DNA of 64,000 nucleotides, taken from IMG/VR virus record IMGVR_UViG_3300027782_000037, positions 32,001-96,000 of that record; one strand, 5' to 3'. Origin of the DNA: a virus. Position 1 is the stretch's first letter. Each line of letters starts with the position of its first letter. The notes under the pieces were generated by a model. That model was not told the origin of the DNA and did no database searches. It saw only the letters and a program-made list of their open reading frames with translations. A program made the translations under genes and the position numbers. Of the stretch, positions 12,033 to 59,421 are shown one piece after another.

Positions 12033-13583
12033 TTATATGTAGTTTTGGCGATTATTGCGTGTAAATTTAAACCGATCAACTAGTTTGCTGATCCCTCCCG
12101 GTGAGGCAACTACCCATCCTTCGTGGCCAGGTTGTTGTCTATCCAACTGCTTCAATAGGTCCATTTTAATGTCATGTAATAATACAAACGCTGTGAAAGC
12201 TGCGCCCATTCCATCTAAATTAGAACTGGGACTCTGCAGGTATTCTACAATATTTCTATATTTGCGTGGAGTTACCGCATTACGCAACCACGTACCAAAT
12301 CTTGAAATCAATGTATCAGCTGTAAACCCTTCTTCATGTTCACTCTGTATCACATTGTTTATAAAATCCACACATAATCTTGGGAGATCACTTATCTGCA
12401 TCTGCCTAAGTTCTGCCGGATTAAACAACGTATCGATATCATTACCATGCAACTCTATTATACTTCGTAGTTGTTTAGATAAATCTCGATCGGTGAGTTT
12501 AACATTTTCAGTTGGTCTAACTGGATTAATAATTGTTAGCCCAGGTACTGAATTAAGTTTTATATTACCAATGGGTTGTTTAGCGGCACCATGATCTTTA
12601 TAATAGGTATGTATAGCTACACCCATATGGCTGTTGGCTATACTTTCCCCTAATTCGCTATTTGTTGGAATTTTATATTCCACGGTATTGGGCTTAAAAA
12701 CTAAAGACCCGGTGTCTTCTATAGGTTTTTCCGAGTACAATAGATCACCATGAATAAAACCTCGAAACTTCGGAGGTACAGCTCGGGCTAATAAGGGCCA
12801 TAAGAGTTCATATATAGGCGCCAGATGTTCTTTACGAGTTCCCATGTCATCGGCATCTCTGCCATCTAAATGACTGACAAGATTAGCGGGATTAGAAAAT
12901 AACCCATCGTATGTTTTAGCATTATATCCGCTAACATCGGTTAATATAAATGCACCGTCTTGATCTCGGCCAAATATAATAGCTGGTTTTCCGTCCCATT
13001 TTACCGTCGCTGAATTGGGTGCATCCTTGGACAAATGTCTAATATGAGTAAGTGCATCGGCAATCCCCGCGACACCTTTTCTAAATACTAAATCTTCGAT
13101 ATGATCTATTCCACGTGTTCTGCCACCATGAATTTCAGGTAGATCAGATTCTATTAACTTCATCATACCCCGATTTACAATTCGATCACGCAATCTAGAA
13201 AGAAAATTGATATCAGATTCGCTCTGTGGATTAGGATTCTTTATAAAACTAAAATCAGTTTGTATAAATCCCCTATTAGGATTGCCATTAATCGGGGTTT
13301 TAAAATAGATCTTTGACCCTGAATTTTTTACATATTCTTTTGAGTTAAACTCTTGACTATCGCACCAATGCCGCAATTCGGCCATTAATTGATCTGGGGA
13401 TATCTTATTAGCGTCTATATTAAGTTCTAGTTTATGTAAACTATGCTGGTCAGCATTACTGATATTGTCCAGTAGGTTTAAATCAACCATGTGCTCAAGC
13501 CATTGCACCGTTGTCTTAATGTCCGTTTGTTCGATACGTTGGGTATCCAATTTTCCTTCATTATCGTTAAACACCAGATGCAT
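12033..13583 (-). CDS. ATP-dependent ligase-superfamily nucleotidyltransferase (RNA-ligase-like) with an extra N-terminal domain
   Basis: Motif I TVKWDG, motif III HGDLLY, motif IV HEGWVV, motif V SKLVDR. Confidence 0.6.
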   Translation of the reverse strand: MHLVFNDNEGKLDTQRIEQTDIKTTVQWLEHMVDLNLLDNISNADQHSLHKLELNIDANKISPDQLMAELRHWCDSQEFNSKEYVKNSGSKIYFKTPINGNPNRGFIQTDFSFIKNPNPQSESDINFLSRLRDRIVNRGMMKLIESDLPEIHGGRTRGIDHIEDLVFRKGVAGIADALTHIRHLSKDAPNSATVKWDGKPAIIFGRDQDGAFILTDVSGYNAKTYDGLFSNPANLVSHLDGRDADDMGTRKEHLAPIYELLWPLLARAVPPKFRGFIHGDLLYSEKPIEDTGSLVFKPNTVEYKIPTNSELGESIANSHMGVAIHTYYKDHGAAKQPIGNIKLNSVPGLTIINPVRPTENVKLTDRDLSKQLRSIIELHGNDIDTLFNPAELRQMQISDLPRLCVDFINNVIQSEHEEGFTADTLISRFGTWLRNAVTPRKYRNIVEYLQSPSSNLDGMGAAFTAFVLLHDIKMDLLKQLDRQQPGHEGWVVASPGGISKLVDRFKFTRNNRQNYI

Positions 13584-13871: not shown

Positions 13872-15263
13872 TTAACTACTCTTAATTTGTGATAACATTT
13901 GTTTTAACTTATTACTTTGCAATTCTGCTGTAATTTTTCCTGTTTCTTCTTTATTTTCAGTATCCACTACTCTGCTTTGTGTTTTAATGTTTTCCAGTAC
14001 ATTGGGACGCTTAAATGAGCTTACTGCACTTGCATCTTCGGGCAAATCACTAATTCTCATAGTTTCTACGTTGTATTCCAACTCTACTTTTTGGCCCACA
14101 CCAGTACTACTACGCGATTTCATACACTGAATTTGATAACGGCCACGTTCTTTCATAGCCCTGCTGGTAAAAATACCAAATACATTATCTGCTGTGTTAA
14201 TCTTACTAATACCACCAGCGATATGACTATGGTCAAATTCAATTTCTTCCACTGCGCTTCGATTTAATTGCGATGCCGTTACGAATAATACGCCCAGTTC
14301 TTGCGATAAGTTGCGAAGTTCTTCTGCTACGTATTTGTCCTTGATAAACTGATCGTTGGGATTTACTTTGACAGATACTGGCATTACTAAATCCAAATAA
14401 TCCACCATGACAAAGTCAACTTTAATGCCAGTTTGCACTTGAACTTCTTTCAAATACGCACGAATATCATTAACATTGCTTTGTGCAGGTAACGCCTTGA
14501 CACGATATTGACCAGCTTTTTTGCTAAAAACTCTAACTTTCAGTTCTGCTGAATCTAGATCTTTCCTAATATCTTTAGTTGACATACCGGATAACATGGC
14601 GTCAGTTCTTAATCCAACTAGTTCTTCACTAAGTTCCAGGCTAACGTATACACCACTTAACCCCTGTTCCAACCAACTAATAGCTATGTTCATCATAACC
14701 AAAGATTTGCCTGATCCAGATCCGCCTGCAAAGATATTTAATTCGCCGCGGCTAAATCCACCATATAATATTTTATCTAGACTTGGCCATCCTGTACTTA
14801 CTTGACCACCACTGTTAAAATATTTGTCATTTCTTGCTTTGGGGCTGGCAAAATAATCTGTTCCCATATCCTTCTGCAGGCTAATCTGCACCGCATCTTT
14901 AATTAATTTTTCTACCGGGGCATATTCACCTTTTTCCAATAAGTCGGCTGATTTAAGAATAGCTCGTTCAAGTTCCTGGCGTTGAGTAAATTTCTCAAAT
15001 TCTTCCATAAACCATTCTAAACTACCATCAGGTAGATCAGGAATCGCATTTAATTTTATCCCGGTTGTGGCTGATACCTGTGCCAGAATAGGCAAAGAAC
15101 TATGGTTAGCGTAGTGTTCTTTAATAAACTCTGCTGCCGGCCTAACGCTGCGATCAAAGTTTTCTGGGTTATATATATTCTGCACACGAATAAAAGATTC
15201 AGCATCGTGTAGCATCATCTCTAAAAATAACCGTTGTGTCTCAATTCCGTAGTCGTTTAACAA
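13872..15263 (-). CDS. Replicative DnaB-family helicase (T4 gp41-like)
   Basis: Walker A GGSGSGKS, VMVDYLD, TASQLNR, MKSR. Confidence 0.93.
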   Translation of the reverse strand: MLNDYGIETQRLFLEMMLHDAESFIRVQNIYNPENFDRSVRPAAEFIKEHYANHSSLPILAQVSATTGIKLNAIPDLPDGSLEWFMEEFEKFTQRQELERAILKSADLLEKGEYAPVEKLIKDAVQISLQKDMGTDYFASPKARNDKYFNSGGQVSTGWPSLDKILYGGFSRGELNIFAGGSGSGKSLVMMNIAISWLEQGLSGVYVSLELSEELVGLRTDAMLSGMSTKDIRKDLDSAELKVRVFSKKAGQYRVKALPAQSNVNDIRAYLKEVQVQTGIKVDFVMVDYLDLVMPVSVKVNPNDQFIKDKYVAEELRNLSQELGVLFVTASQLNRSAVEEIEFDHSHIAGGISKINTADNVFGIFTSRAMKERGRYQIQCMKSRSSTGVGQKVELEYNVETMRISDLPEDASAVSSFKRPNVLENIKTQSRVVDTENKEETGKITAELQSNKLKQMLSQIKSS

Positions 15264-16212
15264 GTTGTCTTTTCCTTAATTCAATTTTAATTCTGCTGGT
15301 CTCTTTAGATTGCAATATAGTTATTAATGTTGCAATCTTACCTAATTTTATCACTGCGTCATTTACATCTTTAATACCTTCTGGCCAGTCGGGAATACTA
15401 ACTGCCCAGTTTAATTCTACTGCACGATCCACTAATTCCATGCCCGCGATATCCTGATCCGGGACCACGATTATTTCTTTACCTATATTGCGTATTAACC
15501 TAGCTTGTGCATCGCTTACTGTATTATGCATTAATGCTAATCCGTCAATACTTAATGCATCAAATATACCTTCTGTTACGATTACATATTGCCAATCTTG
15601 TTGTTGCAGGTCAGTACCAAATACATATCCTGGCTGAAAATAATTGATCCATACCGGTTTACGATCATCTAAAAATCGTACCGTACTACCAACTAATGTG
15701 TTATTATAGGTAAATGGAATAATAACCCCGGTCCGTGCGCCCTTAGTTGAGCTAATCATATAAGGATAGTCAATCGGTGCTTGCCTGCGGCGTAAGTAAT
15801 TCCAAATATCTGTATGCTCGGGAGTTACAAATTCTACACCTCCCATGTCTCTTTCTTCAAAATGTATGCCTAATATAGCATCAGCAGTTCGTTGTCTATC
15901 ATCTATCATGCCCTCAATACTACGATGCCGCAGACTTTCTAATTGAATTCTGTCGATTTCTTCTGCAGGCACATTGAGCCAAGATAAAAATTTACGTGCT
16001 TTGATGCTAAGATTGCGTCCTAATATAAAACTAGCTGTAAAATTACAATTAAAACAATGATAACTCCAGCCCTCGATACTGCCTTTAAATCCGCCACGTT
16101 GACGCCGATCTACGCTTTCACCATTATGTATGCAACAAGGTCCATTAAATGACACCCAGCCTGAGCTGGATTGTTTTCTTTTTGCAGGTAAGAAGGAGAT
16201 GATGTCAATCAT
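15241..16212 (-). CDS. DNA primase (T4 gp61-like)
   Basis: Zn-binding CCIH...HCFNC; TOPRIM VTEGIFDA and VPDQD; KDVND; overlaps the helicase gene. Confidence 0.9.
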   Translation of the reverse strand: MIDIISFLPAKRKQSSSGWVSFNGPCCIHNGESVDRRQRGGFKGSIEGWSYHCFNCNFTASFILGRNLSIKARKFLSWLNVPAEEIDRIQLESLRHRSIEGMIDDRQRTADAILGIHFEERDMGGVEFVTPEHTDIWNYLRRRQAPIDYPYMISSTKGARTGVIIPFTYNNTLVGSTVRFLDDRKPVWINYFQPGYVFGTDLQQQDWQYVIVTEGIFDALSIDGLALMHNTVSDAQARLIRNIGKEIIVVPDQDIAGMELVDRAVELNWAVSIPDWPEGIKDVNDAVIKLGKIATLITILQSKETSRIKIELRKRQLVKRLRN

Positions 16213-17467: not shown

Positions 17468-17848
17468 ATGAACAAAGAAATCTTTGAAAAACTAACCGAA
17501 AAATATCCATTTATAACTCTATGCGTATACTCTACTCAGGAATATGTAGGGATAATACAAAACCGTGATGATGCGATTACCACTATGTACGACTTTGGTA
17601 GTATCATTGACATGGAAGCTAAAAAGCTATTTTTAGAACTAGCCAATGTTTGGTGGTGGGAAAGTAACAGAAGTATCCCCATTAATATATTCCTTAAAAA
17701 AGAATGGGAACCATTCAGGGGCTATATTCGTACTTTTGTTAACAAGGACCTTGAAATAATACATGGTCCGATATGTAGTCTAGCAGAATTAGCCCGCAGC
17801 AAATCAAAACGTAGATCTATTACACTTGTTCGACGGATGCCGGACTAG
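17468..17848 (+). CDS. Hypothetical protein, divergently transcribed
   Basis: 126-aa ORF (WWWESNRSIPINIFL) after + strand TAAATA at 17439-17444. Confidence 0.75.
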   Translation: MNKEIFEKLTEKYPFITLCVYSTQEYVGIIQNRDDAITTMYDFGSIIDMEAKKLFLELANVWWWESNRSIPINIFLKKEWEPFRGYIRTFVNKDLEIIHGPICSLAELARSKSKRRSITLVRRMPD

Positions 17849-18410
17849 AGTCTTCTAATAGATTCATATGTAATGCCACTAGTGCGCTGTATGAAATAGA
17901 GTGGCTTTTTTTAAACGTAAACCCTCGACTATCATCACCGTCCCAAACGCTAGCAAACACTTCTTTCCAGGGACGATTTTGCAAATGTGCTTTTCCAGGT
18001 CGTATAATTGCTATAAATGCCGCCATCCTGGTGATGGAATCGGGTTGCATACGTGCCAATAAATCAGTATATTTCCCTATATGCACAAGATTGTTAGTCC
18101 ATTCGGGATCAGTCCAAAGACGTTGCCAATTAGGTTCCTTGGCTAACAGTTGATCATACTGTTCTTGGGTCTTTATCAGCTTGTACACATTCATATTCAG
18201 CAGATCTATTTTAAAATAACCACGATCTTCGGCTTCTTTGTAGTCTATTGCTGCACATTGATGTATAGGATCGTAGGGAATGTCCGTTACATACACCCCG
18301 GAGTTATGATTCCGAACTTTTCCCTGTACTGTTTGCCTTGCGGGAACGGCTCTAATCAGTTTTAATAACTGTTCCCTATCTGCTAGGTCTAAATCAATAT
18401 CTGCTGACAT
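17820..18410 (-). CDS. Minimal family-C DNA polymerase (DnaE/Pol III alpha) catalytic fragment, 196 aa
   Basis: DIDLD, HNSGVY, GYFKIDLL, AIIRPG and FKKSHSISY occur in DnaE order; start at 18410 is TAATG-coupled. Confidence 0.8.
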   Translation of the reverse strand: MSADIDLDLADREQLLKLIRAVPARQTVQGKVRNHNSGVYVTDIPYDPIHQCAAIDYKEAEDRGYFKIDLLNMNVYKLIKTQEQYDQLLAKEPNWQRLWTDPEWTNNLVHIGKYTDLLARMQPDSITRMAAFIAIIRPGKAHLQNRPWKEVFASVWDGDDSRGFTFKKSHSISYSALVALHMNLLEDSSPASVEQV

Positions 18411-19084
18411 TACCAACCTGCCTTTTTTAATAGTTCTTGTGCCTCTGCACGATTTTCAGGATCTTCTTTTAGTTTCTTAGTCCAGATATCCGGATCAATA
18501 TATGACCATATCATTGTGCGATGTTCACTGGCAATGTCTGACAAAAACTTTTGCCCGGAGTCGGAATTATACAGTACCCATGGACTAATACGACCTGCAA
18601 TAATAGCCTGTACAATAGCATTGTGATTGCCGTACCTTAAATAATCGTGCGATGGTGCCCCTTTATCTTCACTCCAATCCAGAGAATGCTCGATTGCTCT
18701 AGTTAGGGCGTCTTCCATACGTTCTACCTTAAGGTAAAACAACAGATATTCTTCATACAATGTGTCACTGCACCAGTAATCTAATTTTTTATTTTGTTTT
18801 AATATCCATTCAATAAATCTTGCAGGATTTACCACTCGTGTATTGACACAATAGTTTCCAAATTTTACAAAAGCCTTATAGTATGGGCTATCGCAAAAGT
18901 TATCATATGTTTTAGACTTGGCTGAACCCTGAGTTAATTCATAAAATTTAAGATATGCGTTAAATCCTAATCGTACTCCTGCGTCATCTTTTACTTGTCT
19001 ACGCCGTCTTGGTTCACACGAATGCGCAGCCAAGCTAGATTCTCTTACAAAAGATTTTTTACAATACTGGCAAGTATTATTCAT
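18410..19084 (-). CDS. Hypothetical protein with an N-terminal zinc finger
   Basis: CQYCKKSFVRESSLAAHSC. Confidence 0.7.
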   Translation of the reverse strand: MNNTCQYCKKSFVRESSLAAHSCEPRRRRQVKDDAGVRLGFNAYLKFYELTQGSAKSKTYDNFCDSPYYKAFVKFGNYCVNTRVVNPARFIEWILKQNKKLDYWCSDTLYEEYLLFYLKVERMEDALTRAIEHSLDWSEDKGAPSHDYLRYGNHNAIVQAIIAGRISPWVLYNSDSGQKFLSDIASEHRTMIWSYIDPDIWTKKLKEDPENRAEAQELLKKAGW

Positions 19085-19311
19085 TCTACTCGTTCAAAAT
19101 GTCGTTCTAGTTTATGTTCTTTAATATAAGGCCATCGATCACATAACTGCGTTAGCGAAATAAACACTGGTAATAATAGTGCTACCTCATTTGCTGTGAT
19201 ATGACGTACTGGTTTGTACCGCCACCGATCGCCGTCATTGTCCAGGATAATAATTTCTTTAAGTTCAGGTACTACAGCTACTTCTTTCTTCTTCCACAAT
19301 GACCAAATCAT
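19081..19311 (-). CDS. Hypothetical protein
   Basis: 76 aa; ATGA overlaps at both ends. Confidence 0.65.
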   Translation of the reverse strand: MIWSLWKKKEVAVVPELKEIIILDNDGDRWRYKPVRHITANEVALLLPVFISLTQLCDRWPYIKEHKLERHFERVE

Positions 19312-19748
19312 TTTTTTGTCTCCTGCCCTAATTCTTTTAAATAGTTGTCCACGTCTTTTTTAGTATTAATTTTTGCCATCAAATCAATTTCATCATCTCT
19401 TAAATGAGGGAATAGTTCTGTCAGCTGTTTTTTAATACCCGTAGGTTCTTTTTTCTTGGGAGATATCCAGTTATGTCGAAATACTCCCATGCCCGGGCTT
19501 ACGCTTGTAGCGCATAGCCATTGTAATTTAGGATGTTTGGCTGTGGCGAAGAAATGTTTATTCAATCTTTCGTTAGTGGCAATTAAATAATATTCCTGCA
19601 ATTCGCTACTGCCCTGAACACTACTACCCCATCGAATCATTAGATAGTTACTGAATTTCTTACGTTCTTCATCAGTAAGGCTATCATAAAATTCACGATC
19701 CTTGCGATCAAAACAGGCCATTTCGTTTGCAATACCAAGTTTATCCAC
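19308..19748 (-). CDS. Clamp-loader small subunit (T4 gp62-like)
   Basis: FSNYLMIRW...NERLNKHFF...LQWL...WISPKKK resembles the gp62 pattern. Confidence 0.55.
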   Translation of the reverse strand: MDKLGIANEMACFDRKDREFYDSLTDEERKKFSNYLMIRWGSSVQGSSELQEYYLIATNERLNKHFFATAKHPKLQWLCATSVSPGMGVFRHNWISPKKKEPTGIKKQLTELFPHLRDDEIDLMAKINTKKDVDNYLKELGQETKK

Positions 19749-19986
19749 GTTTAATTTGTCCCGCTAATTCACTAATTTGATCTTTAATACGTGTAATATC
19801 TCGTCGCATTTTCTCAATAATCCGTACGTTGGCTTCGTTTGATGCTTGCAAATTTTTAACCATAGTTTCTAAATCAACTACCATTTTTTCCTTGACCGCC
19901 ACTCTATTGGGCAGTATAGGTTCATCACCTGGTCCATATTGATCATTAGCTGTTACCATATTAAAACGCCTTATTATAATTAACAA
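19741..19986 (-). CDS. Hypothetical coiled-coil protein (true start probably the ATG near 19959)
   Basis: Heptad repeats; fills the gap in the operon. Confidence 0.6.
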   Translation of the reverse strand: MLIIIRRFNMVTANDQYGPGDEPILPNRVAVKEKMVVDLETMVKNLQASNEANVRIIEKMRRDITRIKDQISELAGQIKRG

Positions 19987-20461
19987 TCTCGCATGTGCGA
20001 CTTATGTCTTTAACAAAATATACACAGTCGGGCTTCTTACCTTCGTTTATAGGAACACATAATAATTGACCATTTTTAAGTTTGGGTGCATACCAAGTTA
20101 CATCTTGATATACATCTAAAATTTCCACTTCCAAAAAACTTGGCCTAAAACTAGTTAGTGGGTTAAATTGAAATGCCTTAAAACCTCGATCATTGAGTGC
20201 TGACAAAGGTATTACTTCCAGGTCACCCGCCTCGGGATCACCAATTAATAACTGCCAATCAACGGGCATACGTACTCTATACTCACCTATTCGTAATACC
20301 AGTGCAGGACTATTAAAACTTTCCAGGAAGATTAGTGGAATATAATGGTAGTCGGGATCTTGTGGATTGGAATTATCCAAAATACTAAATCGCATATCAT
20401 CTATTTCTTCTGGTAGGTGATTTAAGTCATATGGTTCGTTGTCTAGGGTTAATATTTTCAT
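19961..20461 (-). CDS. Hypothetical all-beta protein, possibly a Hint (intein-like) fold
   Basis: Beta-strand spacing resembles Hint blocks, but there is no Cys1 and no terminal His-Asn. Confidence 0.45.
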   Translation of the reverse strand: MKILTLDNEPYDLNHLPEEIDDMRFSILDNSNPQDPDYHYIPLIFLESFNSPALVLRIGEYRVRMPVDWQLLIGDPEAGDLEVIPLSALNDRGFKAFQFNPLTSFRPSFLEVEILDVYQDVTWYAPKLKNGQLLCVPINEGKKPDCVYFVKDISRTCEIVNYNKAF

Positions 20462-56577: not shown

Positions 56578-59421
56578 TTAAGCCTGGCTTTCTGTCCAAC
56601 CTAAACGAGCATTGACTGTATTGGTTGTGACTGCTGTAATATTGGTAGCACACAATGTCAATACATCTGGGCCATCTGGATACTTGCCTTGATCAGCAGT
56701 GGGTACGTTATTGTTGATACCACCACCTAGAATACTAGTTCCCAAATCCCTAACGCCAAGCAAATCAGTATCAGTTACACCCGGAGTAGTGGTAAAGAAT
56801 CCAAAAATGTTTTCTCCACCTGATATGGTTTGCCCAGCAGTATGAAACGCAATCTGACTCAAGCTGGAGCCGCCAAGGTTTTGAAATGTCCCACCACTAA
56901 CACGACCGTTAAGACGTCCAGTAATTAGTAAAGTCATACCAGTGCCTGTACTGTAAACCCCGCATTGCTTCAACACCAACTGCATACGATTTTGAAGTTC
57001 GCGTATGCCCATTGTACCCACCAGACCTGAATCTACGCTGGGTGCTACACGTAGACTGATTAGGGGTTGTGTGACGCTTGCGCCAATGTTGGCAATGGAG
57101 GTTTGCATACCTGCCACAAACTCAAATTGCTTGTCATCGTCAAATCCACCATCCATAATCACTGAGCTACCCCAGTGATTGATAGCAGGGGCACATTGCG
57201 GACTGTACTGTTCTACTTTGATGGGTGCTGTTGCACTATATGTAAATGTAGTGGCTGATGTGCCGCCAGTTTGTGCTCTAGTTAATCCGGTAAATGTTGT
57301 GGCTGTTTTACCTGTATAAGCTATGTACTCTATAGCACCAGTTGTGGCTGCTGCGGTGACTACTAGTGTGCCTGATGAAGCAAACTGTGTAGTATCGGCT
57401 ACAGTCATGGTTGTTGTCTCAGCTGAACTTAGGGTAGCTGTCAAGTTAGTATAATAAGGCAAACTGCTGGATTCGTATCTTGCCGGTAAGTTACCCGAAC
57501 GGAAATAAGCTTCTGTATTAATGTTGTTGTTTATTATACGATGGCAGTAAATCACTTCACCACGATTATTTTTGAATCCAAATCGCACAGAACCTGCTCC
57601 ATACCAGCTGTAGTCCATGTAGAACATCTGTATTTTGGTAAGATTGATGTTGTAAAAGCTGGCACCTGTACCATCACAACGATCAATGTTCCAGTTGGTC
57701 TGGGAAAAACGTGTGTCTACTGTTCTACTGAGTACACAGTTGGTAGCTGTAGCACCACGATATTCTGGATAGATAGTCATGCTGGTATCAGATGTTATAT
57801 GTTGTACTATATAGCTTTGTCCACGTATTACAACAAAATCACCCGGCTTAAATTCACTGGAAAACTTAGTTACAGTACCAGTAACAGTGGGACTGTCTTG
57901 AGTGAGTGACGATGTTCCAGATGTTTGCAAGGTACTACTGCGCCGCACTACCCACAAAGTTTGTCCATCAAATTCAAAAAATGCTCCATTCTGACTGTCA
58001 AACATGCCTATGCGAATCGGAGCTCCGTACCAAGCGTTGGGTGCTACTGTAATACCGTTGCCGGTAGCAGGTGATGCTGATGGAGTGCTTAAAGCTGTAA
58101 AGGTAAACACATATAAGGTTGTTACTGCGGTAACAGTAAATGTACCATTGTAAGCCGACTGATCAGCTCCAGTAATAGTTACGGTAGCACCTACTCCTAG
58201 CCCATGGCTAAGGCGAGTAGTAACTGTAACTGTGGTACCAGAACTGGTTATGTTGTTTATAGTCAAGTTTGGTTTCATGATACTGCCGGTACTGAACTGT
58301 ATGGCTTTACCAGACTGATAGCGGAACTGTCGTCTTGACTGACGTATAACCTGACTGCCGTGATACGGTAGTTGATTACTGCTTTGAACACCACCATCAA
58401 AAGGTCTATGTTCTATATAACCCAAAGTTCTTGTATAAAGTGAAGCGTTAAGAACTGCGGTGATTGTTCCTGTCGCCGTACAGGCAAAAGTAAATGTGTT
58501 GGCAGTTGGAGTTGTCGCTACTACCCAACTGGAGTTAAGTCTACCAGTAGCACCTGTGGTACCAATTATGAAAATACCACCGCCTACACGTAGTCCATGT
58601 GGATTAGTAGTGGTCACTGTGCCTATAGTACCATTCAATACAATTGCACCGGTGCCAGCAGGAATGGCAGCGCCTGTGAAAAAGTCTGCAATAAACAAAT
58701 AAGTCTTGGTGGCATCAAACAACGCTGCGGCCGGAGCTGTGATCGTGCTGTAGGTAAAGTTGGTGTTGGCAGAAACACTTTCTACTATCCACCATCCGTC
58801 AGCATAGGCCGTATCTAGCGTTCCTTGTATGAATATAGGTCTGCCCACAGTAATACCAGTGGTGTTGTTGATAGTTACTGTGACTGTAGTAGTACTGGCA
58901 GTCACGTTGGTAATTTGATAAGAACCCGAGGCACCACGATATGAGGGTGTGCTGGACACGTTACTGATACCCTGACTGGAATCGTAGAATGATGATGGAC
59001 GATTATTGTACAGAGTCTGACTTTCCCATTTTGTAGGTTGAATACCATATTCAAAGTCTGTGTCAATCATTGCTGTTGGTGTACTAACCCGAAGTTTGTC
59101 TACGGGATCACGATAAGTTTCACTGGCTTTGATTTCTGTGTAGGATTCTTCAACCATGATTGAAATCTTGTCAGTTGAAGTCATGGCCGATGTATTATAA
59201 GCCAGAATAATAGTGGTAGTTTCTAAGCCAGTTGTAGTACTAACCTCATTAGTATAAGAAGTGGCTCCTAAACTAGGATCACTAAAGTTATAAATCACTG
59301 TGTCTGTAGTAGTGTTGGTAATCAACAACAGTTGTTCCCTACGGATATTTTTACCTATAACCTGTACTGTTCTGGTTGAGGGGGTAAAAACATACCGCTC
59401 AATAATTACATTTTTTGCCAT
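56578..59421 (-). CDS. Large virion structural protein with repeated beta-barrel inserts
   Basis: LLITNTT..VIYNFSD, KLRVS.P..MIDTDFEYG.QPTKWE, RQSRRQFRYQSGK, DYSWYGAG, HWGSSVIMDG. Confidence 0.75.
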   Translation of the reverse strand: MAKNVIIERYVFTPSTRTVQVIGKNIRREQLLLITNTTTDTVIYNFSDPSLGATSYTNEVSTTTGLETTTIILAYNTSAMTSTDKISIMVEESYTEIKASETYRDPVDKLRVSTPTAMIDTDFEYGIQPTKWESQTLYNNRPSSFYDSSQGISNVSSTPSYRGASGSYQITNVTASTTTVTVTINNTTGITVGRPIFIQGTLDTAYADGWWIVESVSANTNFTYSTITAPAAALFDATKTYLFIADFFTGAAIPAGTGAIVLNGTIGTVTTTNPHGLRVGGGIFIIGTTGATGRLNSSWVVATTPTANTFTFACTATGTITAVLNASLYTRTLGYIEHRPFDGGVQSSNQLPYHGSQVIRQSRRQFRYQSGKAIQFSTGSIMKPNLTINNITSSGTTVTVTTRLSHGLGVGATVTITGADQSAYNGTFTVTAVTTLYVFTFTALSTPSASPATGNGITVAPNAWYGAPIRIGMFDSQNGAFFEFDGQTLWVVRRSSTLQTSGTSSLTQDSPTVTGTVTKFSSEFKPGDFVVIRGQSYIVQHITSDTSMTIYPEYRGATATNCVLSRTVDTRFSQTNWNIDRCDGTGASFYNINLTKIQMFYMDYSWYGAGSVRFGFKNNRGEVIYCHRIINNNINTEAYFRSGNLPARYESSSLPYYTNLTATLSSAETTTMTVADTTQFASSGTLVVTAAATTGAIEYIAYTGKTATTFTGLTRAQTGGTSATTFTYSATAPIKVEQYSPQCAPAINHWGSSVIMDGGFDDDKQFEFVAGMQTSIANIGASVTQPLISLRVAPSVDSGLVGTMGIRELQNRMQLVLKQCGVYSTGTGMTLLITGRLNGRVSGGTFQNLGGSSLSQIAFHTAGQTISGGENIFGFFTTTPGVTDTDLLGVRDLGTSILGGGINNNVPTADQGKYPDGPDVLTLCATNITAVTTNTVNARLGWTESQA

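Follow-up and report, generated by a model that had tools for sequence, protein, structure and literature searches.

A minimal split DNA polymerase III alpha has been described from sequence in the group 2.2 jumbo phages, the RaK2/PA5oct-like phages of T4 type (Iyer, Anantharaman, Krishnan, Burroughs & Aravind 2021, Viruses 13:63, PMC7824862). These phages encode a family-B polymerase alongside the split enzyme, for which a part in repair or in synthesizing one strand has been suggested (PMC7824862). The C-terminal unit is annotated as 'DnaE-like DNA polymerase III alpha' or as 'DNA polymerase' in Phosso, Paride, RaK2, PBECO4, Atu_ph07 and other phages. No biochemistry of the split minimal enzyme later than 2021 was found in the literature searched. 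We know of no demonstration that a family-C polymerase can function when two unlinked chains share its active site. A parallel is known from cyanobacteria, where the break in a full-size DnaE falls in the fingers and the two parts, DnaE-n and DnaE-c, are covalently rejoined by a split intein.

We identified a C-terminal unit of the phage type at positions 17820 to 18410, on the minus strand, of the window (the whole stretch of 64,000 nucleotides analyzed here), which belongs to an uncultured jumbo phage lineage. The ORF is intact and encodes 196 aa, running from the ATG at 18410 to the TAA stop at 17820–17822. Its PHROG and profile matches, predicted fold and dN/dS values make it almost certain that this gene, which we refer to as mini-DnaE, belongs to the split minimal Pol III alpha family and specifies its C-terminal half, the half that binds metal and template.

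The first-pass annotation, made from the letters of this DNA, listed five motifs in DnaE order with the intervening sequence largely deleted, and all five are found in that order in the intact ORF. DIDLD (residues 4–8, containing D4, D6 and D8; positions 18387–18401) is the equivalent of the PDFDVDF strand of E. coli DnaE, on which D401 and D403 lie. HNSGVY (residues 35–40, containing H35 and G38; positions 18291–18308) lies on the palm strand that follows the point of the absent DnaE thumb. The third catalytic aspartate is in KIDLL (residues 67–71, containing K67 and D69; positions 18198–18212), the equivalent of E. coli K553/D555. Two finger motifs follow, IRPG (residues 136–139, containing R137 and P138; positions 17994–18005), which aligns with LFRPG at 637–641 of the E. 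coli protein, and FKKSHSISY (residues 166–174, containing K167 and H170; positions 17889–17915), which aligns with FNKSHSAAY at 754–762. All of these lie on the minus strand.

The mini-DnaE protein is a full-length match to PHROG 11778, 'DNA polymerase' (E 5.9e-57, residues 3–187 on profile positions 7–193 of 197), and it also matches the DnaE family PHROG 405 (E 9e-6). Searches with the single sequence give less. With Pfam, no DnaE domain scores above its cut-off for the 196-aa chain (DNA_pol3_finger gives 14.1 bits), and the match to E. coli Pol III alpha is weak (E 0.8) but falls at the right places. A family profile (A1) was built from 82 diverse homologues with 27–64% identity. Against 177,635 PDB sequences, the only matches of this profile are Pol III alpha chains, those of E. 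coli, Thermus and Mycobacterium (E 3e-6 to 1e-4).

The A1 HMM alignment pairs K67/D69 with E. coli K553/D555, IRPG with FRPG at 638–641, and FKKSH with FNKSH at 754–758. From earlier work we take D401, D403 and D555 to be the catalytic aspartates of E. coli Pol III alpha. The aspartates of the PDxDxD and KxD motifs had been said to be kept, as indeed they are: D4, D6 and D69 are invariant among the 82 homologues, together with K67 and P138. D8, H35, G38, R137, K140, K167 and H170 are each kept in at least 90% of them.

The predicted structure agrees with the profiles. An AlphaFold model of mini-DnaE built on A1 is confident (pLDDT 94.6, pTM 0.88), and in a Foldseek search of the PDB its top 16 matches are all family-C polymerases. 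With VIA-align, the model aligns with PolC (3f2b; Z 10.2, rmsd 3.4 Å), with Taq Pol III alpha (3e0d; Z 9.7) and with the E. coli enzyme (2hnh; Z 7.9), the last alignment extending from E. coli residue 399 to 789. Between 177 and 195 of the 196 residues are covered in these three alignments, and the next unrelated fold has a Z of 3.6. Superposition on the DnaE palm, which had been proposed as a check, is thus obtained with a confident model, and the DnaE likeness of the protein is far above chance.

The profile and fold alignments together indicate that the 196 residues stand for a stretch of 391 residues in DnaE, from the strand with the first two aspartates to just beyond the KSH finger helix. 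Neither alignment has a counterpart of the thumb or of the part of the fingers that links RPG to KSH. The absence of the PHP, OB and clamp-binding regions and of GRGS, noted in the first pass, is borne out, since the chain covers E. coli DnaE 399–789 and nothing else; the thumb can be added to that list. Compared with bacterial DnaE and PolC (2hnh, 3e0d and the Geobacillus PolC 3f2b), mini-DnaE shares the palm strands with the three aspartates and the RPG and (N/K)KSH finger helices. However, it is about one-sixth the size of these proteins, which exceed 1000 aa, and it is without the PHP domain, the thumb, the clamp-binding region, the OB domain and the tau-binding tail. The GRGS loop is also missing from the chain and in relatives sits on another polypeptide. 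A further difference is that bacterial DnaE or PolC serves as sole replicase, whereas mini-DnaE would accompany a family-B polymerase, as its counterpart does in a relative with a PolB gene (G001, below).

The first-pass annotation had proposed a split polymerase, with this protein as one half and a GRGS-bearing partner encoded elsewhere. This holds in relatives. A tblastn search with a fused form of the two halves (P0176, below) found 188 places in 96 phage records, two per record, and a separate gene with a GVGRGS motif, the N-half, co-occurs with the C-half in 92 of the 96. The four records with one place include known partial ones, such as a 109-kb Klebsiella phage contig. The N-half is about 170–177 aa long, its GVGRGS is invariant, and it scores 25.4 bits against PF07733, for which the cut-off is 23.9. 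All 32 aligned N-halves have the same C-terminal end, ...EFLR.

The two genes lie far apart. Pseudomonas phage Paride has its N-half as gene 0087 (58804–59313) and its C-half 43 kb away, at 15226–15828. In Sinorhizobium phage Phosso, where each half is annotated as 'DnaE-like DNA polymerase III alpha', they are separated by 224 kb (N-half 97210–97743, C-half 321328–321903). In three close relatives of the phage studied here (G001, G002 and G003) the distance from N-half to C-half is about 105 kb. The first of these is a 344-kb genome with terminal repeats, estimated at 100% completeness. The halves are on the same strand in G001 and G002; in G003, a 154-kb IMG/VR contig (loci L093 and L096), they are on opposite strands and 104 kb apart, which suggests either an inversion or a difference of assembly.

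Natural fusions of the two halves also occur. Three metagenomic proteins of 375–376 aa (P0176, P0272 and P0273) consist of an N-half and a C-half joined by a 10-residue linker. P0176, which came from an exhaustive search of representatives, has 375 aa; the mini-protein corresponds to its residues 190–372, and the upstream domain carries the GRGS loop GVGRGSSSASLL. The other two are further diverged fused forms, 78–81% identical. PF07733 is found in all three, and in P0176 the match spans the junction (E 4.8e-16). An unbroken alignment of P0176 with a true PHP-containing DnaE protein (E 1e-13) extends from the GRGS loop across PDFDIDF, which pairs with DFDID of the fused form. Judged by these alignments, the fused proteins are Rosetta-stone evidence linking the N-half to the C-half.

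The nearest relatives of the C-part of the fused forms are stand-alone C-halves (51–59% identical), so the fusion looks secondary. No fused forms were found among the longer homologues of the window protein or in a scan of viral contigs. The contigs that encode the fused forms are short (2.4–5.9 kb). An AlphaFold model of the fused form (pLDDT 54, with the C-half below 50) is too poor to show an assembled active site.

The N-half ends where the fused forms run by way of the linker into DFDID, which places the cut inside the Pol-beta-like palm. On this sequence evidence, the break point lies between the GRGS phosphate-binding helix and the metal-binding strand of the palm. Like the cyanobacterial intein-split DnaE, the phage protein would form a family-C polymerase from two distant genes. 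However, the phage cut separates the GRGS helix from the DxD strand within the palm rather than falling in the fingers, and there are no intein residues. The N-halves end in ...EFLR without an extension and the C-half aligns with DnaE from residue 1. Trans-splicing by an intein can thus be ruled out, as neither end carries intein residues.

The window is part of a 157-kb viral contig that is estimated to be 45% complete. We searched this contig for PF07733, PHP, PolB, PolA, PHROG 405, the fused form and two N-halves, and found only the mini-gene. A scan of all contig ORFs for the GRGS motif returned only glycine-rich structural proteins and the Walker loop of DnaB. The suggested genome search for a GRGS ORF and a PolB gene is thus negative on the 157-kb contig but positive in relatives, with a GRGS ORF in G001, G002 and G003 and a PolB gene in G001.

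The contig is collinear with G001, though inverted relative to it, and the distance from the gene for the large subunit of ribonucleotide reductase (RNR) to the mini-gene is 15.0 kb here and 15.2 kb in G001. In G001 the N-half is at 257 kb and PolB, an 889-aa ORF, is at 291 kb. By synteny, the N-half and PolB of this phage are expected at least 54 kb beyond the left end of the contig. Because the N-half is absent from a contig that is 45% complete, its presence in this phage is inferred from synteny.

The mini-DnaE gene is surrounded by a T4-type replication and recombination module, with a gp32-like SSB, UvsX, UvsY, a UvsW-like helicase, a Toprim primase and a DnaB-like helicase. The gene order is large terminase, gp32-like SSB, UvsX, UvsY, UvsW-like helicase, three small genes, a zinc-finger gene, mini-DnaE, a convergent PHROG 11637 gene, a structural protein, Toprim primase and DnaB-like helicase. 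The same order around mini-DnaE is found in Paride and Phosso, so that the gene lies within the replication module in three deeply diverged lineages. Two of the conserved small genes between the UvsW-like helicase and the zinc-finger gene belong to PHROGs 11758 and 11279 (19308–19748 and 19961–20461, both minus strand). Readings of these two as a clamp-loader small subunit or a Hint fold are neither supported nor refuted by Pfam or PHROGs. Beside the DnaB-like helicase is a 516-aa protein (12033–13583, minus strand) that matches Pfam DUF6267 (E 3.6e-31) and PHROG 455.

Directly upstream of mini-DnaE is a gene for a 224-aa protein (18410–19084, minus strand) that belongs to PHROG 11058 (E 1.6e-53). 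Its N-terminus contains CxxC...HxxC, and there is a weak match to zf-C2H2 that is below the cut-off (E 0.0028). The TAA stop of this gene and the ATG of mini-DnaE share one base (TAATG), and the two genes are therefore probably translationally coupled. The protein is 35% identical to the product of the gene directly upstream of mini-DnaE in Paride. As a candidate for the GRGS partner the zinc-finger gene was rejected, as it has neither a GS motif nor similarity to DnaE.

On the other side is a convergent gene for a 126-aa protein (17468–17848, plus strand) of PHROG 11637 (E 3.8e-33), the 3' end of which overlaps that of mini-DnaE by 29 bases. This tail-to-tail neighbor is kept in Paride (42% identity) and in Phosso (50%). 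Its identity to these two homologues is higher than that of mini-DnaE itself (39–40%). The protein has no match in Pfam or in the protein atlas. It may be a functional partner or a regulator of mini-DnaE.

[quoted passage not shown] It is 37–40% identical to the C-units of cultured phages. We found nothing different in kind; what differs is that the lineage is uncultured, its closest IMG/VR contigs being 70–94% identical. The first-pass annotation expected related jumbo phages to have similar short genes and knew of no function shown for them, which fits the published description of the family (PMC7824862) and our finding no tests of function in the literature searched. The split enzyme was already described in 2021, and the window gene adds an uncultured lineage to it. 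The additions made here beyond that description (PMC7824862) are modest: the natural fused forms, the exact break point, figures for selection, a confident fold match and the deeply conserved attachment of two neighboring genes.

We consider it likely that mini-DnaE encodes the C-half of a two-chain minimal polymerase, which would be a poorly processive auxiliary beside a family-B replicase. The C-half would bring the metal-binding residues D4, D6 and D69 together with reduced finger helices carrying RPG and KKSH. In DnaE these two finger motifs face the incoming nucleotide and the template. The N-half, of about 170 aa, would complete the palm by adding its first strand and helix, on which the GRGS phosphate-binding loop sits. 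The two chains would then dock and rebuild one nucleotidyltransferase active site; given the lack of an intein, non-covalent association is the most likely arrangement.

Our data show the identity, fold, conservation and purifying selection of the C-half, the N-half and PolB in relatives, and the fused forms; we infer formation of a heterodimer, polymerase activity and the biological role, to which different degrees of confidence apply. An active nucleotidyltransferase made of two chains is likely, and templated DNA synthesis as its activity is somewhat favored. A protein without PHP, thumb, clamp-binding and OB domains is expected to be a poorly processive auxiliary polymerase. The enzyme would thus act distributively, in support of PolB, in repair, gap filling or primer extension. 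With no thumb and without most of the fingers, it may need further subunits to grip primer-template DNA. The first-pass annotation also offered primer synthesis as a function, but the dedicated Toprim primase encoded 1.6 kb away makes this unlikely; a DnaB-like helicase is also nearby.

A variant in which the two conserved neighbors take part is conceivable, though we regard it as unlikely. The proteins of PHROG 11058 and PHROG 11637 would here be further subunits of a true heterodimeric family-C polymerase, with an active site made of two unlinked chains, and would replace the thumb or the DNA-holding domains. Such an enzyme might have a specialized task, for example taking over RNA primers before PolB.

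The chain lacks a thumb, every domain for binding DNA or the clamp, and most of the fingers (196 aa for a stretch of 391 residues in DnaE), and PolB is present in relatives. Both facts would also suit an active two-chain enzyme of Pol-beta fold that is not a templated polymerase. Its reaction could be terminal addition, the making of a nucleotide signal, or a step in DNA modification or in counter-defense, and the Pol-beta-like fold is common to many non-polymerase transferases. However, the RPG and KKSH motifs, which are conserved to the same degree as the aspartates, are specific to C-family polymerases, the fold matches above Z 4 are to C-family polymerases only, and the gene resides in the replication module in all three of the deeply diverged lineages. 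A transferase of this kind is therefore improbable.

It is highly improbable that the C-half acts alone or with its neighbors as a DNA-binding or regulatory replisome protein, in which the aspartates bind metal without catalyzing polymerization. The distance to the N-half gene in relatives (43–224 kb) and the constant presence of the adjoining genes, the zinc-finger gene with its stop/start overlap and the PHROG 11637 gene, are consistent with such a protein. However, the halves co-occur in 92 of 96 records, the other four including partial records, and the natural fusions join the C-half to the N-half and never to a neighbor. In addition, the break divides a single structural domain, which leaves the C-half alone with an incomplete palm.

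The two-chain polymerase, if it forms, would be of interest for its size. A pair totaling about 370 aa would be the smallest C-family core known, and it could be a useful model for the minimum needs of the fold and for the origin of Pol III.

Comparison of the gene among its relatives had been suggested as a further check, with frameshifts or loss of the aspartates as signs of decay. We found neither in 80 relatives, which speaks for a working protein. At all 80 IMG/VR loci (70–94% identical) the ORF is full length, the start codon is in the same position and all key residues are retained. D4/D6/D8, H35, G38, K67, D69, K167 and H170 are present in every one of 81 close relatives. For the four closest relatives the dN/dS against the window gene is 0.06–0.08; across 131 unsaturated pairs its median is 0.099. 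The gene is thus under strong purifying selection, with dN/dS of about 0.06–0.10 as the comparison across relatives had been meant to gauge. With 80 of 80 ORFs intact, dN/dS near 0.1 and the catalytic residues retained, a pseudogene is ruled out.

The chain lacks about half of the matching region of DnaE and no Pfam DnaE domain is found at cut-off, as might be expected of a decaying remnant of a full-length phage DnaE, but this reading is vanishingly improbable given the purifying selection, the intact relatives with their shared start and full set of catalytic residues, the compact and confident model that superposes on the DnaE palm, and the more than 7,800 clusters of near-identical length, at 90% identity, into which the family falls in metagenomes. 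The family is thus very abundant in environmental phages, and its strong constraint shows that it does something important beside PolB. At 50% identity, the family has 361 known representatives.
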